64,000 nt of DNA from an uncultured Gammaproteobacteria bacterium (GTDB lineage: Bacteria > Patescibacteriota > Patescibacteriia > 2-01-FULL-39-33), in the NCBI GenBank assembly GCA_964573235.1, contig CAZNIV010000002.1, positions 6,102 through 70,101 on the forward strand, written 5' to 3'. Positions 16,538 to 38,039 of this stretch are shown here, piece by piece (position 1 is the stretch's first letter; each line of letters begins with the position of its first letter). Made by a program: the position numbers and the translations under genes. The notes beneath the pieces are model-generated. The model was not told where the DNA came from and searched no databases. It worked only from the letters and a program-made list of their open reading frames with translations.

Positions 16538-17722
16538 TTAGAGTAATAAATATAAGGTAGTAAATAAGCCCGCTAAAATAAACACCGCATTCCAACCCGG
16601 TTCAATAAATTGAAATATCACTAACGATAAAATCAAGGCTAAAATCTTACCAAAAACCAAAGCCATTTCAAAAAACACCACCGCCCGCATCACATGATGG
16701 CCATCGTTCGCTTTTTGATAAGTAAAGGCTACAAATGGTATGGCGATTACCTGCTTAGCTACGCGAGACAGGGTATCGACGGCAAAAACAGGATAAATAG
16801 TGCGCGACAATAATCTAAAAAACCAAGCTAAGACATAAAAAAATACACCGTATCGCATCACGCTTTGTTTATCGCGACCATCAATAATCTTGCCCACATA
16901 TAAAGAAACGATCGTGGTAATTAATACCGCAACAGCCGCCAAGGTACCTAACTTTAAAAAATCAGCCACTACGATATAAATAAAAATTGGCCACACCACT
17001 AAAACAATCAACTCTTCACCAAAACCCAAGTGAGCAAAAAAACGACGACGATGTTTTTTATCAAACAAAGTAGAAAACGCCTCCCGATACGAAAACTCTG
17101 ACGGGGTGAATTGCTCTTTAGTGAGCAACATCGGCACATTAGATAATAAAATAATAATTGAAGCGATCAAAAATAATACATTAAAACCAAAATAGTTTAA
17201 GACTAAACCGCCAAATAACGGCCCGAGCACAAACACAATCGCATCTAACACGCTTAAGTTACTAATCTGCTTGCCCTGAGCGCCATCGGTGGCAAAATAA
17301 GCAAAATCCGCATGATAAGCAGGCCAAAAAAAAGATTTAGAGGCAATATAACACAAAACCGAAATACCCAAAAACCAGAAATTTTGTTGAGAGGCAAACA
17401 AAGTTAAATACAACAAAACCGTAAACACTGAACCCAAAGCAATAGAATGCTCAAAACCAAAGCGCTTGGCAAATTTTGCTCCCAACGGCACTACAAAAAA
17501 ATAAATGAGGTACACAGACAAATAATAGAGCAATACACCCTGCACCGCCTGTGCCACTGACCAAGATTTAGCAAATAACAAATAGATAAAAACCGGCTCA
17601 AACAGATTAACCGCCGATAAAGCAAAGTTTAAAATAAAAATTGAAGCATAAAGTTCTTTAATCTCGCGTTTGAGATTCAAGCAAAAAAAACTAGAACCTA
17701 ATTGTTTAATTTTATCTAGCAT
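16538..17722 (-). CDS. MFS-type transporter (about 12 TM helices)
   Basis: 394 aa, hydrophobic throughout with a basic central loop (KKHRRRFF). Confidence 0.6.
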   Translation of the reverse strand: MLDKIKQLGSSFFCLNLKREIKELYASIFILNFALSAVNLFEPVFIYLLFAKSWSVAQAVQGVLLYYLSVYLIYFFVVPLGAKFAKRFGFEHSIALGSVFTVLLYLTLFASQQNFWFLGISVLCYIASKSFFWPAYHADFAYFATDGAQGKQISNLSVLDAIVFVLGPLFGGLVLNYFGFNVLFLIASIIILLSNVPMLLTKEQFTPSEFSYREAFSTLFDKKHRRRFFAHLGFGEELIVLVVWPIFIYIVVADFLKLGTLAAVAVLITTIVSLYVGKIIDGRDKQSVMRYGVFFYVLAWFFRLLSRTIYPVFAVDTLSRVAKQVIAIPFVAFTYQKANDGHHVMRAVVFFEMALVFGKILALILSLVIFQFIEPGWNAVFILAGLFTTLYLLL

Positions 17723-18724
17723 TTATTTTTTTATCTTTTTAACTAACTGATATAAATTATACCAAAAAATTCCATAACCTGTCTCATACGCACCAACATA
17801 ATCAGTAAATTTGGCATTTTCCGCAAAGCCCTGTTTAAATCTAGTTACGCCCGGCCACTTAACTTCATCCACGCCCCAAAAATCATAATATTTTTTACCT
17901 TGGGCTTTAGCTTTTAAAATTGTTTGCCATTGCAACAAATAAGGCGCCATTTTTTGGCGATATTCATAATCAGAAGCCCCGTGTAAATACACACACCAAT
18001 CATTTAAATTAATCACCAAATTGGCCGTCACTACTTTATTATCAATTTTGGCCACTACTACTTCTAAAATATTTTTAACGGATAAAACAGCTACCATTTT
18101 TTGATAATATTCTCCGCCATGGGCCATAAATTCATCACGCTCAGCTGTTAATTTAATCAAGCGTAAAAAATCAGCCAAATATTCAGCGCCGGAATGAATA
18201 GTTACGCCACTCTTTTGCGCCACTTTAATATTGTAGCGGGTCTTAGCTTTCATTTGAGATAGAAGCGCCTCTTCGTTTAGCGTCAAATCCAAAATCAAAG
18301 TTTGTTTCGGTTGAATCATATTGATTTTTTTATAACCAAAATCAGTCAACTCTATGGCGTCTATAAACCAAGCCGGATCCAACCGCGTTAAGATAGCTTT
18401 TTCTTTTACTGCCAAAGATTTTAATTCCGCCAAAAAAAATTTTAGCACTTCCTTTTGTTTTTCTATTTCCAACCCCGCCAATAAGATTGGTCCGCGAGGA
18501 ATGTAAAAATAAGTTTTGCCAAAAACCAATGGATTAACTATTGCCTGAGCGACTAATACTATTTTATCTCCGTCCATCACGCCAATTCTAAAAACTTTTC
18601 GCCCTAAAGCGATTTGTAAATCTCCCCATGACGCATTTTGTAACAAACCAAAATCTCCAGCCTGAGTTTTTACAAACTCCTGCCACTGATTAAGCTCAGC
18701 ATCATTAAAATATTTAATCGTCAT
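17723..18724 (-). CDS. FemAB-family peptidoglycan interpeptide-bridge aminoacyltransferase-like protein
   Basis: YLHGASD...APYLLQWQTILKAKAQGKKYYDFWGV region matches the conserved FemAB/GNAT-like C-terminal motif. Confidence 0.6.
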   Translation of the reverse strand: MTIKYFNDAELNQWQEFVKTQAGDFGLLQNASWGDLQIALGRKVFRIGVMDGDKIVLVAQAIVNPLVFGKTYFYIPRGPILLAGLEIEKQKEVLKFFLAELKSLAVKEKAILTRLDPAWFIDAIELTDFGYKKINMIQPKQTLILDLTLNEEALLSQMKAKTRYNIKVAQKSGVTIHSGAEYLADFLRLIKLTAERDEFMAHGGEYYQKMVAVLSVKNILEVVVAKIDNKVVTANLVINLNDWCVYLHGASDYEYRQKMAPYLLQWQTILKAKAQGKKYYDFWGVDEVKWPGVTRFKQGFAENAKFTDYVGAYETGYGIFWYNLYQLVKKIKK

Positions 18725-21700
18725 TAAATTACAAAACTAATCAAACGCCCCGGTACAAAAATAATTTTCTTAATTTCCGCTCCAGCTAAATACTGTTTAA
18801 TCCGCTCATCTTTTTTAGCTGCTACCACCGCCTCTGCTTCAGAGATTTCTACCGGCAATTCTAACTTAGCACGCACCTTACCATTAACTTGAATGGCAAA
18901 TTGAGCCGTTTTCTTGCTTACCTTATTAACATCATAAACTGGCCACTTTTCTTGATTAATACTGGCCTTGTAGCCTAAATTCTGCCACAACTCTTCGGAT
19001 AAATGAGGCGCAAATGGCGACAACATCACCGCCTCTGCTTCAGAGATTTCTACCGGCAATTCTAACTTAGCACGCACCTTACCATTAACTTGAATGGCAA
19101 ATTGAGCCGTTTTCTTGCTTACCTTATTAACATCATAAACTGGCCACTTTTCTTGATTAATACTGGCCTTGTAGCCTAAATTCTGCCACAACTCTTCGGA
19201 TAAATGAGGCGCAAATGGCGACAACATCACCAAAAATTGTTCCGACATGTCTTTGGTAAACGCTTTTACCTCTTGAATGCGATTAACTAAAATCATCATC
19301 GTAGAAATAGCGGTATTAAAACCCATTGTTTCAACATCACTACCCACTTTCATCACGGTTTGATTAAACAAGATTTCTGTTTCTTCATCAACTTGTTCCA
19401 CGATTTTTATTTCACCACTAGTATACACCGCCCAAACTTTTTCTAAAAATCTCTTTAAACCTACCATGCCTTTAGTGCTCCAAGGCTTAGCATCTTCTAA
19501 TGGACCCATGAACATTTCATACAATCTAAAAACATCCGCGCCATATTCACGCAAAATATCATCAGGATTAACCACATTGCCACGCGACTTACTCATCTTC
19601 TCGCCATCTTCACCTAAAATCAAACCTTGATTAACTAATTTTACAAACGGTTCTTCTTGAGGTACATAACCTAAGTCAAATAACACCATGTTCCAGAATC
19701 TGGCATACAATAAATGTAACACCGCATGCTCGGCACCGCCCAAATAAACATCTACCGGCAACCAATATTTTAATTTTTCCGCCGAAGCAAATTCATTCGG
19801 ATTTTTAGAATCAATATAGCGCAACCAATACCAAGAAGATCCGGCCCATTGAGGCATAGTATTGGTTTCGCGCTGGGCCTTGCCACCACAAACTGGGCAT
19901 TTTACTTCTACCCATTCTTTAATGTTCACCAATGGTGATTCACCGGTACCTGATGGTTCATATTTTTCTACCATCGGCAAAGTTAATGGCAATTCGGATT
20001 CTGGTACTGGCACAATACCGGTATTTTTGCTACGCAAAACTAGCTCCAATAATTCTGGGGTAACTGGATTATTAAAATGACCAAAACCATGCCAAACTTT
20101 AAACATCCAACCAGCTGGAATATTCTCATGCGTCTTACGACTAATCCACGGATCATCGTCAGACAAAATAATATTTTTATCCTCCACTAAATTGCTCACT
20201 TTTTCCCAACTAAAATCTGTTTCCCAAATTTTCTTCAATGATTCAACGTCGGAATTTGGCCATTGCTCTTTAAGCCACTGCCAATCGCGCTCGTTACGCT
20301 CACCAATTGCCGAGGCAATCAAATAAACATGGCCGATTTTTTTATTCGCCTGCTCAATTAAATGTAACGCCGCCTTACTACCCAGACTGTGGCCAATAAC
20401 CACATCATTAGCGCCCATTTTTTGCATATAAGGCTCAAGCGCCTTTAACCAATCAGCTAAAACCGGGTGCTCGCTATTTGGCATATCAGGCGCAAATACC
20501 TCATAGCCATTCTTTTCTAATTCCTGCTTTAAATATGGAAACCAGTTATTACTACCATTGCCCTCAAAACCATGAATCAACAACGCTTTTTGTTTTTGTT
20601 TTTTGCAATAATCACAATGAATTAACGGCATCGGTTCACCCCAATAACGCTGGCGAGAAAATACCCAGTCACGCAATTTATAGTTAACTGCCATCTTGCC
20701 TAAGTTATTAGCTTCTAGCCAGGTAATCATTTTTTTGATGGCATCTTTAGGCAATAACCCATTTAAAAAATCAGAATTAACCATTTTACCAGAGTCAATA
20801 TCCGTAAAGGCTTCGTTGGTAATATCGCCACCGCTAATTACCTCAATAATTGGCAAATCAAATTTCTTCGCAAAAGCATAATCGCGTTCATCATGCGCCG
20901 GCACTGCCATAATCGCGCCCGTACCGTAAGTACTCAAAACATAATCCGAAATCCAAATAGGAATCTCGGTATCATTGACCGGATTAATCGCTTTTATACC
21001 CTCAAGTTCTACGCCAGTCTTATCTTTATTTAATTCTGTACGCTCTAAATCAGATTTATTTTTAGCTTCCGTCGCATACCTAGTTACTTCGGCAAAATTA
21101 GTAATTTTATCTTTTAATTTTTGCACTAATTCATGCTCTGGTGATAACACCATATAAGTCGCACCAAACAAAGTATCTGGGCGAGTGGTATAAACCACGA
21201 TATCAGCCAACTCATCACCATCTTGCGCTACTTTAAAAGTCACTTCGGCGCCTTCACTGCGACCAATCCAATTACGTTGCAAGGTTTTGATTGATTCCGG
21301 CCAATTCATTTGCTCTAAACCACTCAATAAGCGATCGGCATAAGCAGTAATGCGTAACATCCATTGGCGCAAGTTCTTTCTTTCTACGACCGTGCCACAA
21401 CGCTCACATTTGCCATTAACCACCTCTTCGTTGGCCAAGCCAGTTTTACAAGATGGGCAGAAATTAATTGGCACAAAAGCTTCATATGCCAAACCTTTTT
21501 TAAATAACTGTAAAAAAATCCATTGCGTCCATTTATAATATTCCGGATCGGTCGTATCTACTTCACGCTCCCAATCATAAGAAAAACCCAAACTCTTAAT
21601 TTGCTTTCTGAAAGTATTAACATTGCTTTGAGTAGTCACACTCGGATGTGTACCAGTTTTAATCGCATAATTTTCTGCTGGTAAACCAAAAGCGTCCCAA

Positions 21701-21936
21701 CCCATCGGATGTAAAACATTAAACCCCTTTAATCTCCAATAACGAGAAAAAATATCGGTCGCTGTATAACCTTCTGGATGACCAACATGCAAACCCATAC
21801 CTGATGGATAAGGAAACATATCCAAAATATATTTCTTGGGTTTGGTGGAAAAATCTTCAGCTTTAAAAGTTTTATTATCTTCCCAGAACTTCTGCCATTT
21901 TGGCTCAATTTCACTAGGGTTATACTTAGCGTTCAT
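18724..21936 (-). CDS. leuS: Leucine--tRNA ligase carrying a ~195-aa YdeN/RBBP9-like serine-hydrolase insertion and a duplicated 67-aa C-terminal segment
   Basis: HVGHPEGY (HIGH) motif, CP1 editing domain, KMSKS, C-terminal domain. Insert runs from about 20020 to 20604; tandem duplication at 18826..19227. Confidence 0.9.
18826..19227. repeat. Perfect tandem duplication, 2 x 201 bp, in frame inside the leuS 3' region
   Basis: Unit 18826-19026 is identical to 19027-19227 in the displayed sequence; the protein shows [67 protein letters not shown] twice. Confidence 0.85.
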
Positions 21937-22022
21937 AAACGGGCGATAAATATGATTTAAACAAGGTTAATTTAACATAAAATTGGGTTTTTTTCAATTA
22001 AAACGAAACGAAAGCGCTAGTA

Positions 22023-22051
22023 TTGACAATTTAGCCAAATTAAACTAAGAT
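22023..22051 (+). promoter_or_regulatory. Sigma70-type promoter for island A gene 1 (TTGACA-17-TAAGAT)
   Basis: -35 at 22023-22028, 17-nt spacer, -10 at 22046-22051. Confidence 0.5.
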
Positions 22052-22110
22052 ATTCCTCACGTACATTACAGCGAATTAACGCCAACCAACCGGAAAGGAT
22101 ACATGAGTGT

Positions 22111-22491
22111 ATGTGTAAAAACGCACTTTTGTTTCTCTTTTCCCTGATTCTGATTTTTTCGTGGTTTTCTGCGGTAATTGCGACAAAAGTGATTCCGAGC
22201 CAATCCGGCACTGTCACTTTCGTTCAATCCAGCGACCACGAGCTGAAATTTACCCCGTATTTTCCCAAATCGGAGCGTGACCCTCAACCGTCACTCGCCG
22301 TTTTGCCAGAAGAACCGGTAAAAATCAACAAAATCAGACACCTTCCACCAAGCAAAATCGCGTACAAAGCGAAAACTTGGGCGGATGAAAACAGGGAAAT
22401 TCCAGGGTTTTTGACTCTGCCGGGCCCGGCACGCAACAAAGATCCGTGTTGCCAAGAGGCACGGAAACTTGTAGTCTCGACACGGACCTAG
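22111..22491 (+). CDS. Island A gene 1: secreted 126-aa protein of unknown function (GC-rich, foreign codon usage)
   Basis: Signal-peptide-like N-terminus MCKNALLFLFSLILIFSWFSAVIA; GGAAAGGA SD at 22092-22099; CTG/CCG/GCG-rich codons unlike flanking host genes; terminator follows. Confidence 0.5.
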   Translation: MCKNALLFLFSLILIFSWFSAVIATKVIPSQSGTVTFVQSSDHELKFTPYFPKSERDPQPSLAVLPEEPVKINKIRHLPPSKIAYKAKTWADENREIPGFLTLPGPARNKDPCCQEARKLVVSTRT

Positions 22492-22520
22492 CAGAGAAAA
22501 ACAAGAGTCTGTGCCTCTCC

Positions 22521-22546
22521 AGCGCCATAACATGGCGCTTTTTTAT
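22521..22546 (+). terminator. Intrinsic terminator after island A gene 1
   Basis: 8-bp stem agcgccat/atggcgct with 3-nt loop, followed by TTTTTTATTT. Confidence 0.6.
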
Positions 22547-22591
22547 TTGTCTAAATTTAAACAATTTAATTGATTTTAAAACCAAAATATA

Positions 22592-22620
22592 TTGACAACA
22601 TAACTTTTATGTGGTATAAT
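22592..22620 (+). promoter_or_regulatory. Perfect-consensus sigma70 promoter for island A gene 2 (TTGACA-17-TATAAT)
   Basis: -35 at 22592-22597, -10 at 22615-22620. Confidence 0.65.
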
Positions 22621-22663
22621 ACAGAAGTCGTACATTTAACCGCAACCTCAACTGGAGGATCTC

Positions 22664-22768
22664 ATGAAAGACCTCGTCTTTGTGCTGGCCGTCGGAGTGA
22701 TCTTCGTTTTCATCAAAATCATGAAAGTGCTCCTTGGTGAAAACAAGCAGGCGAAAAAACCCGCTTGA
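22664..22768 (+). CDS. Island A gene 2: 34-aa hydrophobic single-helix peptide MKDLVFVLAVGVIFVFIKIMKVLLGENKQAKKPA (type-I-toxin-like or small membrane peptide)
   Basis: GGAGGA SD at 22654-22659, 4 nt before the ATG; GC-rich codons; sits between the consensus promoter and the terminator. Confidence 0.55.
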   Translation: MKDLVFVLAVGVIFVFIKIMKVLLGENKQAKKPA

Positions 22769-22794
22769 ACACCTCAACCGCCACCACAACCAAA

Positions 22795-22823
22795 AGGCCC
22801 CCGCTGATCACGGAGGCCTTTTA
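22795..22823 (+). terminator. Intrinsic terminator after island A gene 2
   Basis: ggcccccg / cggaggcc stem with palindromic loop tgatca, then a T-run. Confidence 0.6.
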
Positions 22824-22867
22824 ACTTTTATCCTATTTTATAATGTAATATATAAAATTTAGCAAAA

Positions 22868-23266
22868 CTATTTAACAATATAACTACATTTATTCTCGCT
22901 GCAAATAGCACTCAACTTATCCGATGCATCATCTAAATAATATTGGCACACACCACACGCGATACCATTTTCACATTTCTTTCTCTCTAAAGAATCCCAA
23001 TAAGTAACATACTTTTTATTTATTACCTCCAGACAACCACAGCACTCTTTAGAATCAGCGAATGCGCAATCTTCCTTAGTAACACAAGAAAGCAACTCTT
23101 CGCGATCTTTTGGTATCAAATAACCCACGGGCACTTTAGATGAATCTATTTGCTTGCCAGTCATTTGAGTGGGGATACCATTATTTATTATTAAAAAATA
23201 AGTAATCACACCGACTAAAACAATAATAATAGCGCTCAAAATTAAAACTAAACTTTTTTGCTTCAT
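22868..23266 (-). CDS. Small membrane-anchored cysteine-rich protein (host)
   Basis: 132 aa; N-terminal TM (LVLILSAIIIVLVGVITYFLII) then about 10 Cys; AT-rich codons. Confidence 0.5.
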   Translation of the reverse strand: MKQKSLVLILSAIIIVLVGVITYFLIINNGIPTQMTGKQIDSSKVPVGYLIPKDREELLSCVTKEDCAFADSKECCGCLEVINKKYVTYWDSLERKKCENGIACGVCQYYLDDASDKLSAICSENKCSYIVK

Positions 23267-23334
23267 ATTTTTATTGATTTATAAATTATTATGTTCTCTT
23301 TATTTGAACTATTTTGATATCCAAATTTTATTCC

Positions 23335-26187
23335 CTACTTTATACTCAATAATTTCTTTAAATACTGACCGGTATAACTATCCTTAACTTTCGCCACATC
23401 CATTGGTGTACCCGAAGCTACTAACTTACCACCAGCCACGCCACCTTCGGGACCTAAATCAATAATCCAATCCGCCGCCTTAATCACATCTAAATTATGT
23501 TCGATCACTAAAATTGAATTACCTTTATCCACCAAGCGATGTAACACTTGCAACAAACGACTAATATCATCAAAATGTAAACCGGTCGTTGGCTCATCCA
23601 AAATATATAAGGTCTTACCTGTTGGACGACGAGATAACTCGGTCGCCAACTTAACTCTTTGCGCTTCACCACCAGATAAAGTAGTCGCACTTTGGCCTAA
23701 ACGCAAGTAACCCAAGCCCACCTCTTCTAAAATCGATAATTTATCAATTACCTGAGGCTCATCAGCAAAAAACTTCTTCGCTTCCGCCACCGACATATCC
23801 AAAACATCGGCAATATTTTTATCTTTATAATGAATTTCTAAGGCATCCTGATTATAGCGCTTGCCATGACATGCTTCACACTCGACAAATACATCAGGCA
23901 AAAATTGCATTTCAATTTTTACATAACCATCGCCGGAACAATTTTCACAACGGCCACCACCTTTAACATTAAAGCTAAAATGACCTTGTTTAAAACCACG
24001 CATTTTACTTTCTGGTAACTCAGCATACAAATCACGAATGTAAGTGAATACACCAGTATAAGTGGCAGGATTAGAGCGAGGAGTGCGACCAATTGGCGAC
24101 TGATCAATGTCAATTACCTTGTCTAAATTTTCTAAACCACGCACTTCTTTATGTTTGCCTGGCAAATCACGAGTACGATAAAACCTATTAGACAAAACTT
24201 TAGTTAAAATTTCACTCATTAAGGTAGATTTACCAGAGCCAGAAACGCCCGTGACGCAAACCAATTTACCTAACGGAATTTTAACATCAATATTCTTTAA
24301 ATTATGTTCCGTGGCACCAATAATTTCAATGTTTTTACCATTACCTTGGCGATAAGACTTGGGCAAAGGAATACATTTTTTGCCGGATAAATATTGACCA
24401 GTTAAAGATTTTTTATCATTTTTTACTTCTTCAAAAGTGCCTTCAGAAACTACTTCGCCACCTAAGCTGCCCGCCCCTGGGCCAATATCAATTACATGAT
24501 CAGCTGATTGCATCATTTGTTCATCGTGCTCTACCACAATTACCGAATTGCCCTTATCTCGCAAGCGTTTTAACGCTTCAATTAACTTAGCAGTATCGCG
24601 CGCATGCAAGCCGATTGAAGGTTCATCAAGCACATAAGTAACTGATTCCAAACCGGAACCAATTTGCGTGGCTAATCTAATTCTTTGCGATTCACCACCG
24701 GCTAAAGTATTAGCACTGCGAGACAAAGTTAAATAATTCAAACCGACTTGTTGTAAAAAGATTAAACGCTTATCTACTTCTTTAATAATTTGTTTAGCAA
24801 TCTTGCCTTCACGCGATTCGCTCTTCCACTTTCTAGATAATTCATCAAATAATTTAGCCAAACTATCAATATCCAAATCAGTCATATCAGCAATCGACAA
24901 ATTATTGATTTTAATCGCCAAACTTTCTGGACGCAATTTGCGACCTTGGCAAGTGGGACAGGTAGAAACACGCATGTATTCCTCAAGAGTTTTCTGCATG
25001 TATTCACTCTTGGCTTCTAAATATTTTTCATTCAAAAATTCAATCACGCCCGGAAATTTTACCGTTGTACCTTCAACCACATATTCTTCTTGACCAGTAC
25101 CTTTCATAATCAATTCAAAAACTTTGTCGGATAATTCCGCCACCGGCACATTCAAACTAAATTTATATTTTTTCGCCACCACCTCTAACAACTTCATGTT
25201 GCTATTTTGAGAAGAAAAATTTCTGGACCAAGGCTTAATCGCGCCTTCGGCTAAAGTTAAACGCTTATTGGGAATAATTAATTCCGGATCCGGAATTAAA
25301 CGCGTACCTAAACCACGGCAAGCCGGACAAGCGCCAAAAGAAGAATTAAAAGAAAAAGAATGCGGTTCAATCTCCGGCAAGCTTATGCCACAATTGCGAC
25401 AAACATAATATAAATTAAAATTATGTTCTTGATTAGTTTCTGGCAAAAAGATATTAATAAATCCGTTACCAAAATCCAATGCTAAGTTAATCGTTTTTTC
25501 TAAGCGTTGCCAATTAACATCTTCTACTTTTTTGGCTTTAGTTTCTGAAGTCAGCGTAACAGTATCCACTAAAATTTCAATAGTATGACTAATATTTTTA
25601 TCAATCTCTAATTTTTTTGCTTCCGTAATATTATAAAAATTGCCATCGATGCGTAACAGTTCGTAATTAGCTTTATCGATCGCTTCAATTTGTTTAGTGT
25701 GAGAACCTTTTTTATTCATGACTACTGGCGCCAAGATTTGCATTTTCACGCCTTCCTTCCAGGTAGTAATCGTATCTAAAATTTGCTTTGGAGTTTGACG
25801 CTCTACTTTTTGCCCACATTTATGACAAAATACTTCGCCGATGCGCGCATAAAGCAAGCGCAAATAATCATAAATTTCTGTGACTGTACCCACAGTAGAG
25901 CGTGGATTAACCGAAGATGATTTTTGATCAATGGCAATGGTTGGCGATAAACCATCGATACTATCGACATCTGGCTTATCCATCAAATCTAAAAATTGCT
26001 TAGCATAAGAAGATAAGCTTTCGGCGTAGCGTCTTTGCCCTTCAGCATACAGCGTATCAAAAGCTAACGAAGACTTGCCAGAACCAGACAAACCAGTGAT
26101 AACCACCAATTTATTTTTGGGGATTTCTAGCGAAACATTTTTTAAATTATTAACTCGCGCACCCTTGATCGTGATCTTATCGGTCAT
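23335..26187 (-). CDS. uvrA: Excinuclease ABC subunit A
   Basis: Two ABC ATPase modules ([14 protein letters not shown]; [10 protein letters not shown]), zinc-finger Cys clusters, 950 aa. Confidence 0.95.
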
Positions 26188-37955: not shown

Positions 37956-38039
37956 GCCGAAATGGTGAAATTGGCAGACACGCAACGTTCAGGTCGTTGT
38001 GGGCTCACGCTCGTGAGGGTTCAACTCCCTCTTTCGGCA
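37956..38039 (+). tRNA. tRNA-Leu (anticodon CAG), no encoded CCA
   Basis: 7-bp acceptor stem gccgaaa/tttcggc, anticodon loop ttCAGgt, long variable arm, T-arm agggTTCAACTccct. Confidence 0.8.

Follow-up and report, generated by a model that had tools for sequence, protein, structure and literature searches.

The stretch analysed here, hereafter the window, comprises 64,000 nucleotides of contig CAZNIV010000002.1 (assembly GCA_964573235.1, positions 6,102 to 70,101 of the forward strand), deposited under the name of an uncultured Gammaproteobacteria bacterium and placed by its GTDB lineage among the Patescibacteriota, that is, in the candidate phyla radiation (CPR). On its reverse strand lies leuS, the gene for leucyl-tRNA synthetase (LeuRS), and inside the reading frame of leuS, directly behind the first knuckle of the second zinc module, sits a domain of 195 residues which, judged by sequence and by predicted structure, is a compact, lid-less α/β hydrolase of the YdeN/RBBP9 family. 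A first-pass annotation, made from the letters of the window, had pointed to this insert. What our analysis adds is its recurrence: sequence comparison places the same hydrolase subfamily at five or more positions of LeuRS in Patescibacteria/CPR, often in the company of a NUDIX domain. The features of the gene are, in window coordinates:

18724..21936, minus strand: leuS coding sequence, a single open reading frame (ORF) of 1070 aa (1003 aa in a second assembly without a 201-nt duplication)
20605..21936, minus strand: LeuRS residues 1-444, first half of the Rossmann fold, aligning to Thermus thermophilus LeuRS 3-442
20605..20619, minus strand: HCDYC, residues 440-444, which forms the first CxxC knuckle of the second zinc module and directly precedes the insert
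20020..20604, minus strand: predicted YdeN/RBBP9-type α/β serine hydrolase domain, residues 445-639, 195 aa (PF06821, AlphaFold2 model, Foldseek)
20569..20574, minus strand: oxyanion-hole His-Gly, H455 and G456
20380..20394, minus strand: nucleophile elbow GHSLG, residues 515-519, with the codon of the catalytic Ser517 at 20386-20388
20152..20154, minus strand: catalytic Asp595, the third D of SDDDPW
20077..20079, minus strand: catalytic His620, in GFGHF
18727..20019, minus strand: LeuRS residues 640-1070, with the second knuckle, KMSKS, and the anticodon-binding and C-terminal domains, aligning to T. thermophilus LeuRS 442-581 and 638-876
18826..19227, minus strand: tandem duplication towards the 3′ end of leuS, two perfect copies of 201 nt (18826-19026 and 19027-19227), residues 904-970 being equal to 971-1037

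A leucyl-tRNA synthetase interrupted at its second zinc module

The leuS reading frame runs through 1070 codons with 0 stops and 0 frameshifts in the ORF scan of the window, and the whole protein scores 1104.8 bits against the bacterial family model TIGR00396 (leuS_bact; curated cut-off 548.4). Pfam recognizes tRNA-synt_1, the LeuRS editing domain PF13603 (208.7 bits, residues 221-408) and Anticodon_1. Against T. thermophilus LeuRS (PDB entry 1h3n), HMMER gives an end-to-end alignment of the backbone with 745 bits, and the hallmarks of the solved T. thermophilus and E. coli enzymes (1H3N, 4AQ7) return in the window protein: the class I motifs HIGH, here HVGH at residues 50-53, and KMSKS at 780-784 (19585-19599); ZN-1, as CPSC/CERC, within residues 160-180; a CP1 editing domain whose motifs TTRPDT (250-255) and AHDERD (347-352) are intact; the pair of Cys4 knuckles, the second of which, CPVCGG, is kept at residues 680-685 (19882-19899); and the anticodon-binding and C-terminal domains. 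Unlike the window protein, the solved enzymes hold nothing between the first knuckle and the GxVPVP segment, and they possess a leucine-specific domain. No such domain was found ahead of KMSKS in the window protein (near 19585-19620), where T. thermophilus residues 581-638 stay unmatched and the alignment leaves the query at 777 to resume at 781. As the nearest relatives also appear to be without it, judged by their length of about 800 aa, its absence looks like a lineage trait and no bar to membership among the LeuRS. On these sequence grounds, the window gene is a complete bacterial-type leucyl-tRNA synthetase.

Where exactly does the additional domain enter? The alignment with 1h3n places query residues 4-444 on T. 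thermophilus 3-442 and query residues 639-777 on 442-581; thus, 195 aa sit between residues that adjoin in the T. thermophilus enzyme (C442 and G443). Close relatives devoid of an insert, such as the LeuRS P0022, read HCDKC/GIVP at this point, the normal spacing being 0-1 residue. The first-pass annotation had therefore located the insertion correctly behind HCDYC, whereas the spacing of about 2 residues that it had taken as normal was slightly too large.

A predicted hydrolase of the YdeN/RBBP9 family

The boundaries proposed in that annotation, residues 445-639 or 20020-20604, hold exactly, and so does the family which it had named. Taken alone, the insert, which opens with the basic linker KKQKQK, matches PF06821 (Ser_hydrolase) with 65.7 bits (E 6.4e-18) over profile positions 2-155 of 172, well above the gathering cut-off of 22 bits; within full-length LeuS, the match covers residues 452-622 and scores 60.8 bits. 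In a sequence search of the PDB, the insert matches best to B. subtilis YdeN (1uxo, E 4e-15), followed by human RBBP9 (E 1e-7). From 26 aligned sequences, AlphaFold2 yields a model of high confidence for the insert, with a mean predicted local distance difference test (pLDDT) of 96.1 and a predicted template-modelling (TM) score (pTM) of 0.92. In a Foldseek search of the PDB with this model, YdeN ranks first (1uxo, E 7e-14, TM 0.80) and RBBP9 chains come next (E 1e-13 to 5e-12, TM 0.77-0.79), the two proteins filling places 1-7; the remainder are other α/β hydrolases with E >=3.6e-9, which are larger (224-283 aa) and lid-bearing.

With YdeN (1UXO; PF06821 / COG3545), the insert shares a length of about 190 aa, the lid-less α/β fold, the Ser-Asp-His triad and a nucleophile elbow of the form xHSLG, which reads GHSLG in the insert and AHSLG in YdeN. 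Yet YdeN is free-standing, whereas the insert is nested in LeuRS, and the identity of the two in a structure-based alignment is about 22%. Human RBBP9 (2QS9, 7OEX, 9FCR) is of the same family and fold but is a eukaryotic stand-alone protein. Modelled in the context of full-length LeuS, in its 1003-aa form, a step which the first-pass annotation had proposed, the domain is embedded with confidence: the model reaches a pLDDT of 92.2 and a pTM of 0.87, and ten-residue blocks range from 89 to 98 across the insert and both linkers. The nested architecture thus appears structurally plausible, and the model suggests a fixed rather than a dangling packing of the domain.

The insertion is genuine and inherited

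Could the insert have arisen through chimeric assembly, as an intein, or by a recent mobile insertion that disrupts leuS? Genes of the CPR are known to carry insertions, and the same leuS assembly contains, suspiciously, the perfect 201-nt tandem duplication listed above. This duplication repeats 67 aa where the anticodon-binding domain passes into the C-terminal domain and leaves the insert untouched. A contig from an independent assembly in the ENA (L081, ERZ27300137, 5432 nt) shows 100% identity with the window across 4317 nt (19027-23343), insert included. The duplication is missing from this contig and from its 1003-aa product (P0015), and it is the sole difference between the two assemblies. 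Among the protein records, the 1070-aa product of the window itself is listed from an NCBI contig of 71.8 kb, and a partial NCBI entry of 938 aa stops within the first copy of the duplication. The duplication may represent either real strain variation or an assembly error.

For the insert itself, the matter is clearer. The ORF is uninterrupted, no zinc knuckle or other LeuRS motif is damaged, and orthologous inserts of 33-59% identity occupy the same residue in many other genomes; together with the identical DNA in the second assembly, these orthologs show that the insert is not an artefact. Intein termini are absent from an insert that begins with K445 and ends with ...SKNT639, to be followed by G640, and Pfam finds no Hint or homing-endonuclease domain on either LeuS or the insert. 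The composition is that of the surrounding gene, with a GC content of 0.397 for the insert vs 0.391 for the rest of leuS and of 0.385 vs 0.347 at third codon positions (GC3); the relative synonymous codon usage (RSCU) of the insert correlates with that of the rest of leuS at 0.77, the value for a neighbouring gene of 333 codons being 0.79. Thus, the first-pass annotation was right to see here a native, in-frame domain of host-like codon usage, neither a product of mis-assembly nor an intein. The insertion is genuine and inherited, and an artefact, an intein or a recent mobile insertion are effectively excluded.

Recurrence at five or more positions of LeuRS

In a survey of close relatives, comprising the 120 best LeuRS matches of a full-length search, 13 proteins carry the hydrolase. 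In 11 of these, a hydrolase of 195-202 aa occupies the same residue as in the window (P0015-P0020, P0040, P0055, P0063, P0070, P0084), so that the insertion is indeed common to many genomes, a survey of related CPR LeuRS having been among the checks proposed at first pass. In 2 of the 120 (P0040, P0103), the hydrolase follows the CP1 segment ...IIEVI, and in 1 (P0094, annotated 'Patescibacteria group bacterium') it lies directly ahead of the NYKLRDW motif. A word-indexed search with the insert alone had suggested that the insertion is unique to the window: it returned 14 mostly free-standing proteins and missed all hydrolase-bearing LeuRS, even the 100% identical P0015. This view was overturned by the full-length and the HMMER searches.

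For an exhaustive HMMER search, a profile of the site-444 insert with its LeuRS flanks was compared with 1.84 billion cluster representatives, yielding 8394 matches at E <=1e-3 and 111 at E <=1e-30. When the best 150 representatives were mapped on the insert-free LeuRS P0022, at least 72 proved to be LeuRS or LeuRS fragments with a hydrolase. Representatives and earlier proteins together provide 80 embedded domains, which distribute over the following positions, given in P0022 coordinates:

~444: 46 domains; zinc knuckle, the site of the window
~245: 19 domains; CP1 entry, a few residues ahead of the TTRPDT editing peptide
~370: 12 domains; CP1 end
210: 1 domain; between ZN-1 and CP1
~655: 1 domain; anticodon-binding domain
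~33: 1 domain; N-terminal position in a 270-aa fragment (P0280), not counted among the five sites

BLAST located the junctions in full-length proteins for ~245 (P0177, P0240, P0191), ~370 (P0154, P0149), 210 (P0175) and ~655 (P0184), and the ~245 site was also seen in a metagenome-assembled genome of Peregrinibacteria (L001). A scan of genome contigs with patterns from the LeuRS flanks returned mostly ordinary LeuRS and found the hydrolase in L001 and L002 only; L040 and L050, considered as further carriers, were rejected, their matches having merely run on into CP1. The taxonomy of the carriers is read from the few source names available, which are Patescibacteria group and Peregrinibacteria, with Buchananbacteria and Komeilibacteria for close relatives that are insert-free or NUDIX-bearing.

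As a change of position requires either a new insertion or an intragenic transposition, at least five distinct positions imply at least five events. In a neighbour-joining tree of the domain, without support values, embedded and free-standing copies are interleaved and the sites are mixed, a pattern which agrees, as far as these sequences go, with multiple insertion events. Some LeuRS harbour two copies, namely P0040, at the CP1 end and at the zinc knuckle, and P0140, with two in tandem ahead of CP1. In four proteins of 759-1004 aa (P0174, P0178, P0185, P0269), the hydrolase stands at the N-terminus and is followed by LeuRS sequence from about residue 228-247 onward, the HIGH region being missing; a split LeuRS or a truncated gene call may account for each of them.

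Conservation of the catalytic residues

The motifs quoted in the first-pass annotation are all found in the insert, LLIHGF with the oxyanion-hole pair at 455-456, GHSLG at 515-519, SDDDPW at 592-597 and GFGHF at 617-621, and the complete Ser-Asp-His triad that it had claimed is recovered in the alignment as S517, D595 and H620. This alignment of 26 sequences (A1), of which 13 are LeuRS-embedded and 13 free-standing homologues, has as its invariant columns, in LeuS numbering, H455, G456, W465, H516, S517, L518, G519, D595 and H620. Over the 80 embedded domains, which represent clusters at 50% identity, the catalytic Ser and His are each present in 80/80, the acid residue in 74/80 (66 Asp and 8 Glu), and the His and Gly of the oxyanion motif in 78/80 and 76/80, respectively; otherwise, the embedded copies share only about 33-55% identity. 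Pseudo-enzymes normally lose their catalytic residues. Since these residues are near-invariant across deeply diverged embedded copies, the inserted domain is, on comparative grounds, very probably a catalytically active serine hydrolase.

Many of the domains appended to synthetases are non-catalytic binding modules. Following this precedent, the fold might have been co-opted as a structural, tRNA-binding or docking domain, its hydrolase chemistry being irrelevant, and the basic linker at its start could contact RNA. However, the retention of triad and oxyanion motif in almost all embedded copies, at the level of divergence observed, renders such a role highly improbable.

Other inserts in LeuRS and free-standing relatives of the hydrolase

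The hydrolase is not the only guest of these loops. About 20 of the 120 closest LeuRS, including P0016-18, P0027, P0030, P0035 (PF00293, E 3e-14) and P0042, carry a NUDIX domain at the CP1 end (P0022 ~367-370), and in seven of these about 20 proteins it occurs together with the hydrolase at the zinc knuckle. Exactly at the zinc-knuckle site, P0021, P0034, P0054, P0056, P0071 and P0095 have a domain of 129-131 aa with the motif ...TVE[ST]RALNPE..., for which Pfam gave no match, and a further unrelated insert of 112-130 aa, likewise without a Pfam match, is found at the CP1 end of P0019, P0021 and P0054. In P0064 and P0065, a GIY-YIG domain (PF01541, 94 aa) lies inside CP1, after P0022 residue 304, which hints at a nuclease of mobile-element origin.

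The 77 non-LeuRS proteins among the top-scoring matches are mostly free-standing proteins of 178-243 aa, with no other synthetase among them. Ten multi-domain proteins among them were scanned with Pfam, the partner being NUDIX in P0251 and P0205, GNAT in P0276, peptidase S51 in P0262 and a second α/β hydrolase in P0211, P0220 and P0202; for P0215, P0239 and P0245, no second Pfam domain was found. The stand-alone fusions of NUDIX and hydrolase mirror the pairing of the two inside LeuRS. The closest free-standing relative (P0001 / P0286), of 228 aa and 54% identity to the window insert, bears an N-terminal leader resembling a signal peptide or that of a lipoprotein.

Is the linkage to LeuRS selected?

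What can be discerned from this distribution about the reason for the association? The same two partners have been joined at least five separate times, there are LeuRS with two copies, and NUDIX and hydrolase are paired both inside LeuRS and as stand-alone fusions. From these comparisons, we lean, if only slightly, towards a linkage of LeuRS and hydrolase that was selected over one that arose by accident. Several observations weigh against such a view. The loops in question also host the unrelated NUDIX, 131-aa, 112-130-aa and GIY-YIG domains and may therefore be simply permissive. In a neighbour-joining tree of the LeuRS backbone, again without support values, the site-444 hydrolase is patchy, and insert-free LeuRS reach up to 73% backbone identity to the window enzyme; the hydrolase has thus been repeatedly gained, lost or both, and LeuRS evidently works without it. 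P0001, nearer to the window insert than many LeuRS-embedded copies are, would be a secreted esterase, which is hard to tie to tRNA. The glutamate by which RBBP9 anchors the α-amine of its substrate, Glu108, is variable: HMMER pairs the 'NER' of RBBP9 with the 'NER' of the insert, making E549 its counterpart, and in this column the 80 embedded copies have E 15 times, D 10 times, K 13 times and a gap 28 times. Lastly, since the profile of the exhaustive search included LeuRS flanks, LeuRS proteins had an advantage when the representatives were ranked.

Most of these points would fit an alternative in which the domain is a passenger, that is, a housekeeping esterase or aminopeptidase that settled in a permissive loop of a constitutive, essential gene and is kept for its own activity, as an economical packaging in a genome of about 1 Mb and with no link to leucylation. 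The fusions of free-standing family members to peptidases and other hydrolases, and not to tRNA-related domains, point in the same direction. However, it would then be difficult to see why one and the same hydrolase subfamily should have entered LeuRS at five positions or more, with neither another synthetase nor another essential protein among the 77 top matches outside LeuRS, why P0040 and P0140 hold it twice, the latter in tandem, and why the linkers are modelled with the confidence of a fixed packing (pTM 0.87). We regard the passenger scenario as a serious contender that falls well short of being probable.

Possible substrates and function

If the linkage was indeed selected, what might the hydrolase do? 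By analogy with its relatives, the domain probably functions as a hydrolase in physical connection with LeuRS and cleaves an (amino)acyl ester, thioester or amide that is soluble in water. RBBP9 is the only family member with a defined chemistry: it removes hydrophobic or aromatic residues from N-termini, forming acyl-enzymes with Leu/Ile/Phe/Tyr/Trp, and needs a free α-amine for this (PMC8866121). It has also been reported to activate valacyclovir, in which a nucleoside analogue is esterified with L-valine (Shenoy et al. 2020, as cited in PMC7730578). For the lid-less YdeN, the crystallographers proposed water-soluble esters or thioesters as substrates, and its homologue ML-005, a metaproteomic esterase, hydrolyses short-chain p-nitrophenyl esters (PMC6119806). 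ML-005 has the Ser-Asp-His triad, and it shares a signal peptide with P0001; it differs from the insert in being a secreted stand-alone esterase. The amine-binding Glu108 of RBBP9 is not demonstrably kept in the embedded copies. With this column being variable, we rejected the transfer of the amine anchor to the insert, and the substrate class of RBBP9 cannot be carried over with confidence.

A free-amine aminoacyl ester on the ribose of a nucleoside is the chemistry of aminoacyl-tRNA, and this brings aminoacyl esters to the fore. We thus envisage a domain that would hydrolyse (amino)acyl esters or thioesters in cis and thereby add a clearance step to LeuRS. Its preferred candidate substrate would be an aminoacyl ester on the 3′ end of tRNA or on a nucleotide, providing extra clearance or proofreading. 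A second candidate would be cyclic by-products of editing, e.g. homocysteine thiolactone, and a third the N-terminal hydrophobic residues of peptides, whose removal could supply leucine. With respect to the second, the product of homocysteine editing is a thiolactone. LeuRS is counted among five synthetases that edit homocysteine (PMC5370406), and BPHL, the other human valacyclovirase, is an efficient homocysteine thiolactonase (PMC4198189). Argued as they are from analogy, none of these candidates is likely when taken singly.

Whichever the substrate, the hydrolase would supplement canonical editing rather than replace it, as the CP1 site is intact. Strict matches to the CP1 motifs were obtained in most of 50 near-full-length representatives of hydrolase-bearing LeuRS, and a replacement of decayed CP1 editing was rejected for this reason as well as for the intact motifs of the window LeuRS. 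Measured along the sequence, each of the three major insertion sites is no more than about 5-25 residues away from one of the active-site peptides TTRPDT, AHDERD and RQRYWGEP. This closeness is compatible with an action in cis, though it is equally expected of the variable loops of a connective polypeptide.

The known editing modules, i.e. CP1 of LeuRS, IleRS and ValRS, INS/YbaK of ProRS, N2/AlaX, and the DTD-like domain of archaeal ThrRS, cleave free-amine aminoacyl esters. The insert is like them in being a hydrolytic domain in, on or alongside a synthetase, and would resemble them further if it acted on aminoacyl-tRNA. However, its predicted α/β-hydrolase fold is none of the known editing folds (CP1, INS/YbaK, AlaX/N2, DTD-like), and we know of no synthetase editing module with an α/β-hydrolase fold or a Ser-Asp-His triad. 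This lowers any claim to a known editing domain and leaves intact the idea that the insert could work like one. For an unrelated catalytic domain in a class Ia synthetase, a precedent is provided by the IleRS with a GNAT domain (NCBIfam NF040702, ileS_w_GNAT). It concerns another synthetase and another enzyme class, and the window protein scores 74.8 bits against its cut-off of 1999.

In its most far-reaching form, our proposal would make the domain a new quality-control site of a synthetase, a Ser-Asp-His hydrolase of aminoacyl-(thio)esters that works in cis and either deacylates mischarged or damaged aminoacyl-tRNALeu or destroys aminoacyl-adenylate or homocysteine thiolactone; with NUDIX, it would form a CPR-specific, multi-enzyme 'clean-up' LeuRS. 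We consider this rather improbable. Were it true, the repeated insertions at five or more sites would record a strong selection for coupling.

Few enzymes have been studied as thoroughly as the synthetases, whose editing and accessory domains are held to be almost fully catalogued. A search of the full-text literature, with subscription journals outside its coverage, found no paper that describes an inserted hydrolase or NUDIX domain in LeuRS or in other synthetases of the CPR, and in public databases the hydrolase-bearing LeuRS are labelled plainly 'leucine--tRNA ligase'. The joining of an intact hydrolase to LeuRS, five times or more and in reduced CPR genomes, suggests an undescribed activity linked to leucylation, be it proofreading, detoxification or amino-acid supply. 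At the same time, the orphan bacterial YdeN/RBBP9 family gains a concrete physiological partner to test, and two or three surface loops of LeuRS emerge as natural sites of domain insertion, useful for protein engineering. Even as a mere passenger, the hydrolase would be a clear case of essential genes carrying accessory enzymes in streamlined genomes.

Genomic neighbourhood

Downstream of leuS, in the stretch 16538-18724, lies a FemAB-family gene (PF02388, E 3.7e-47), whose start overlaps the leuS stop in TAATG, and a gene for a transporter of the major facilitator superfamily (MFS) then follows. Proteins of the FemAB family transfer amino acids from aminoacyl-tRNA to cell-wall precursors, and an operon of LeuRS and FemAB may thus serve a Leu-tRNA-dependent modification of the cell envelope. 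The order uvrA-leuS-femAB-MFS recurs at the loci of the hydrolase-bearing P0016, P0018 and P0020 and of the insert-free P0024. It does not recur at P0070, P0063, P0022 or P0035, and femAB is absent beside the hydrolase-bearing P0070 and P0063 and from 80 control loci. A specific link between hydrolase, femAB and MFS was rejected in favour of lineage synteny, as the insert-free P0024 has femAB and the hydrolase-bearing P0070 and P0063 do not.

Between leuS and the next gene on its other side, a gap of about 930 nt (21937-22867) contains only short, overlapping ORFs, and its GC content rises to 0.49 against a background of about 0.37. The ORFs of this gap have no Pfam match and the gap has no significant Rfam match; it could represent an unrecognised RNA or a decayed gene. 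The only tRNA gene within the 64-kb window, at 37956-38039, is a tRNA-Leu(CAG).

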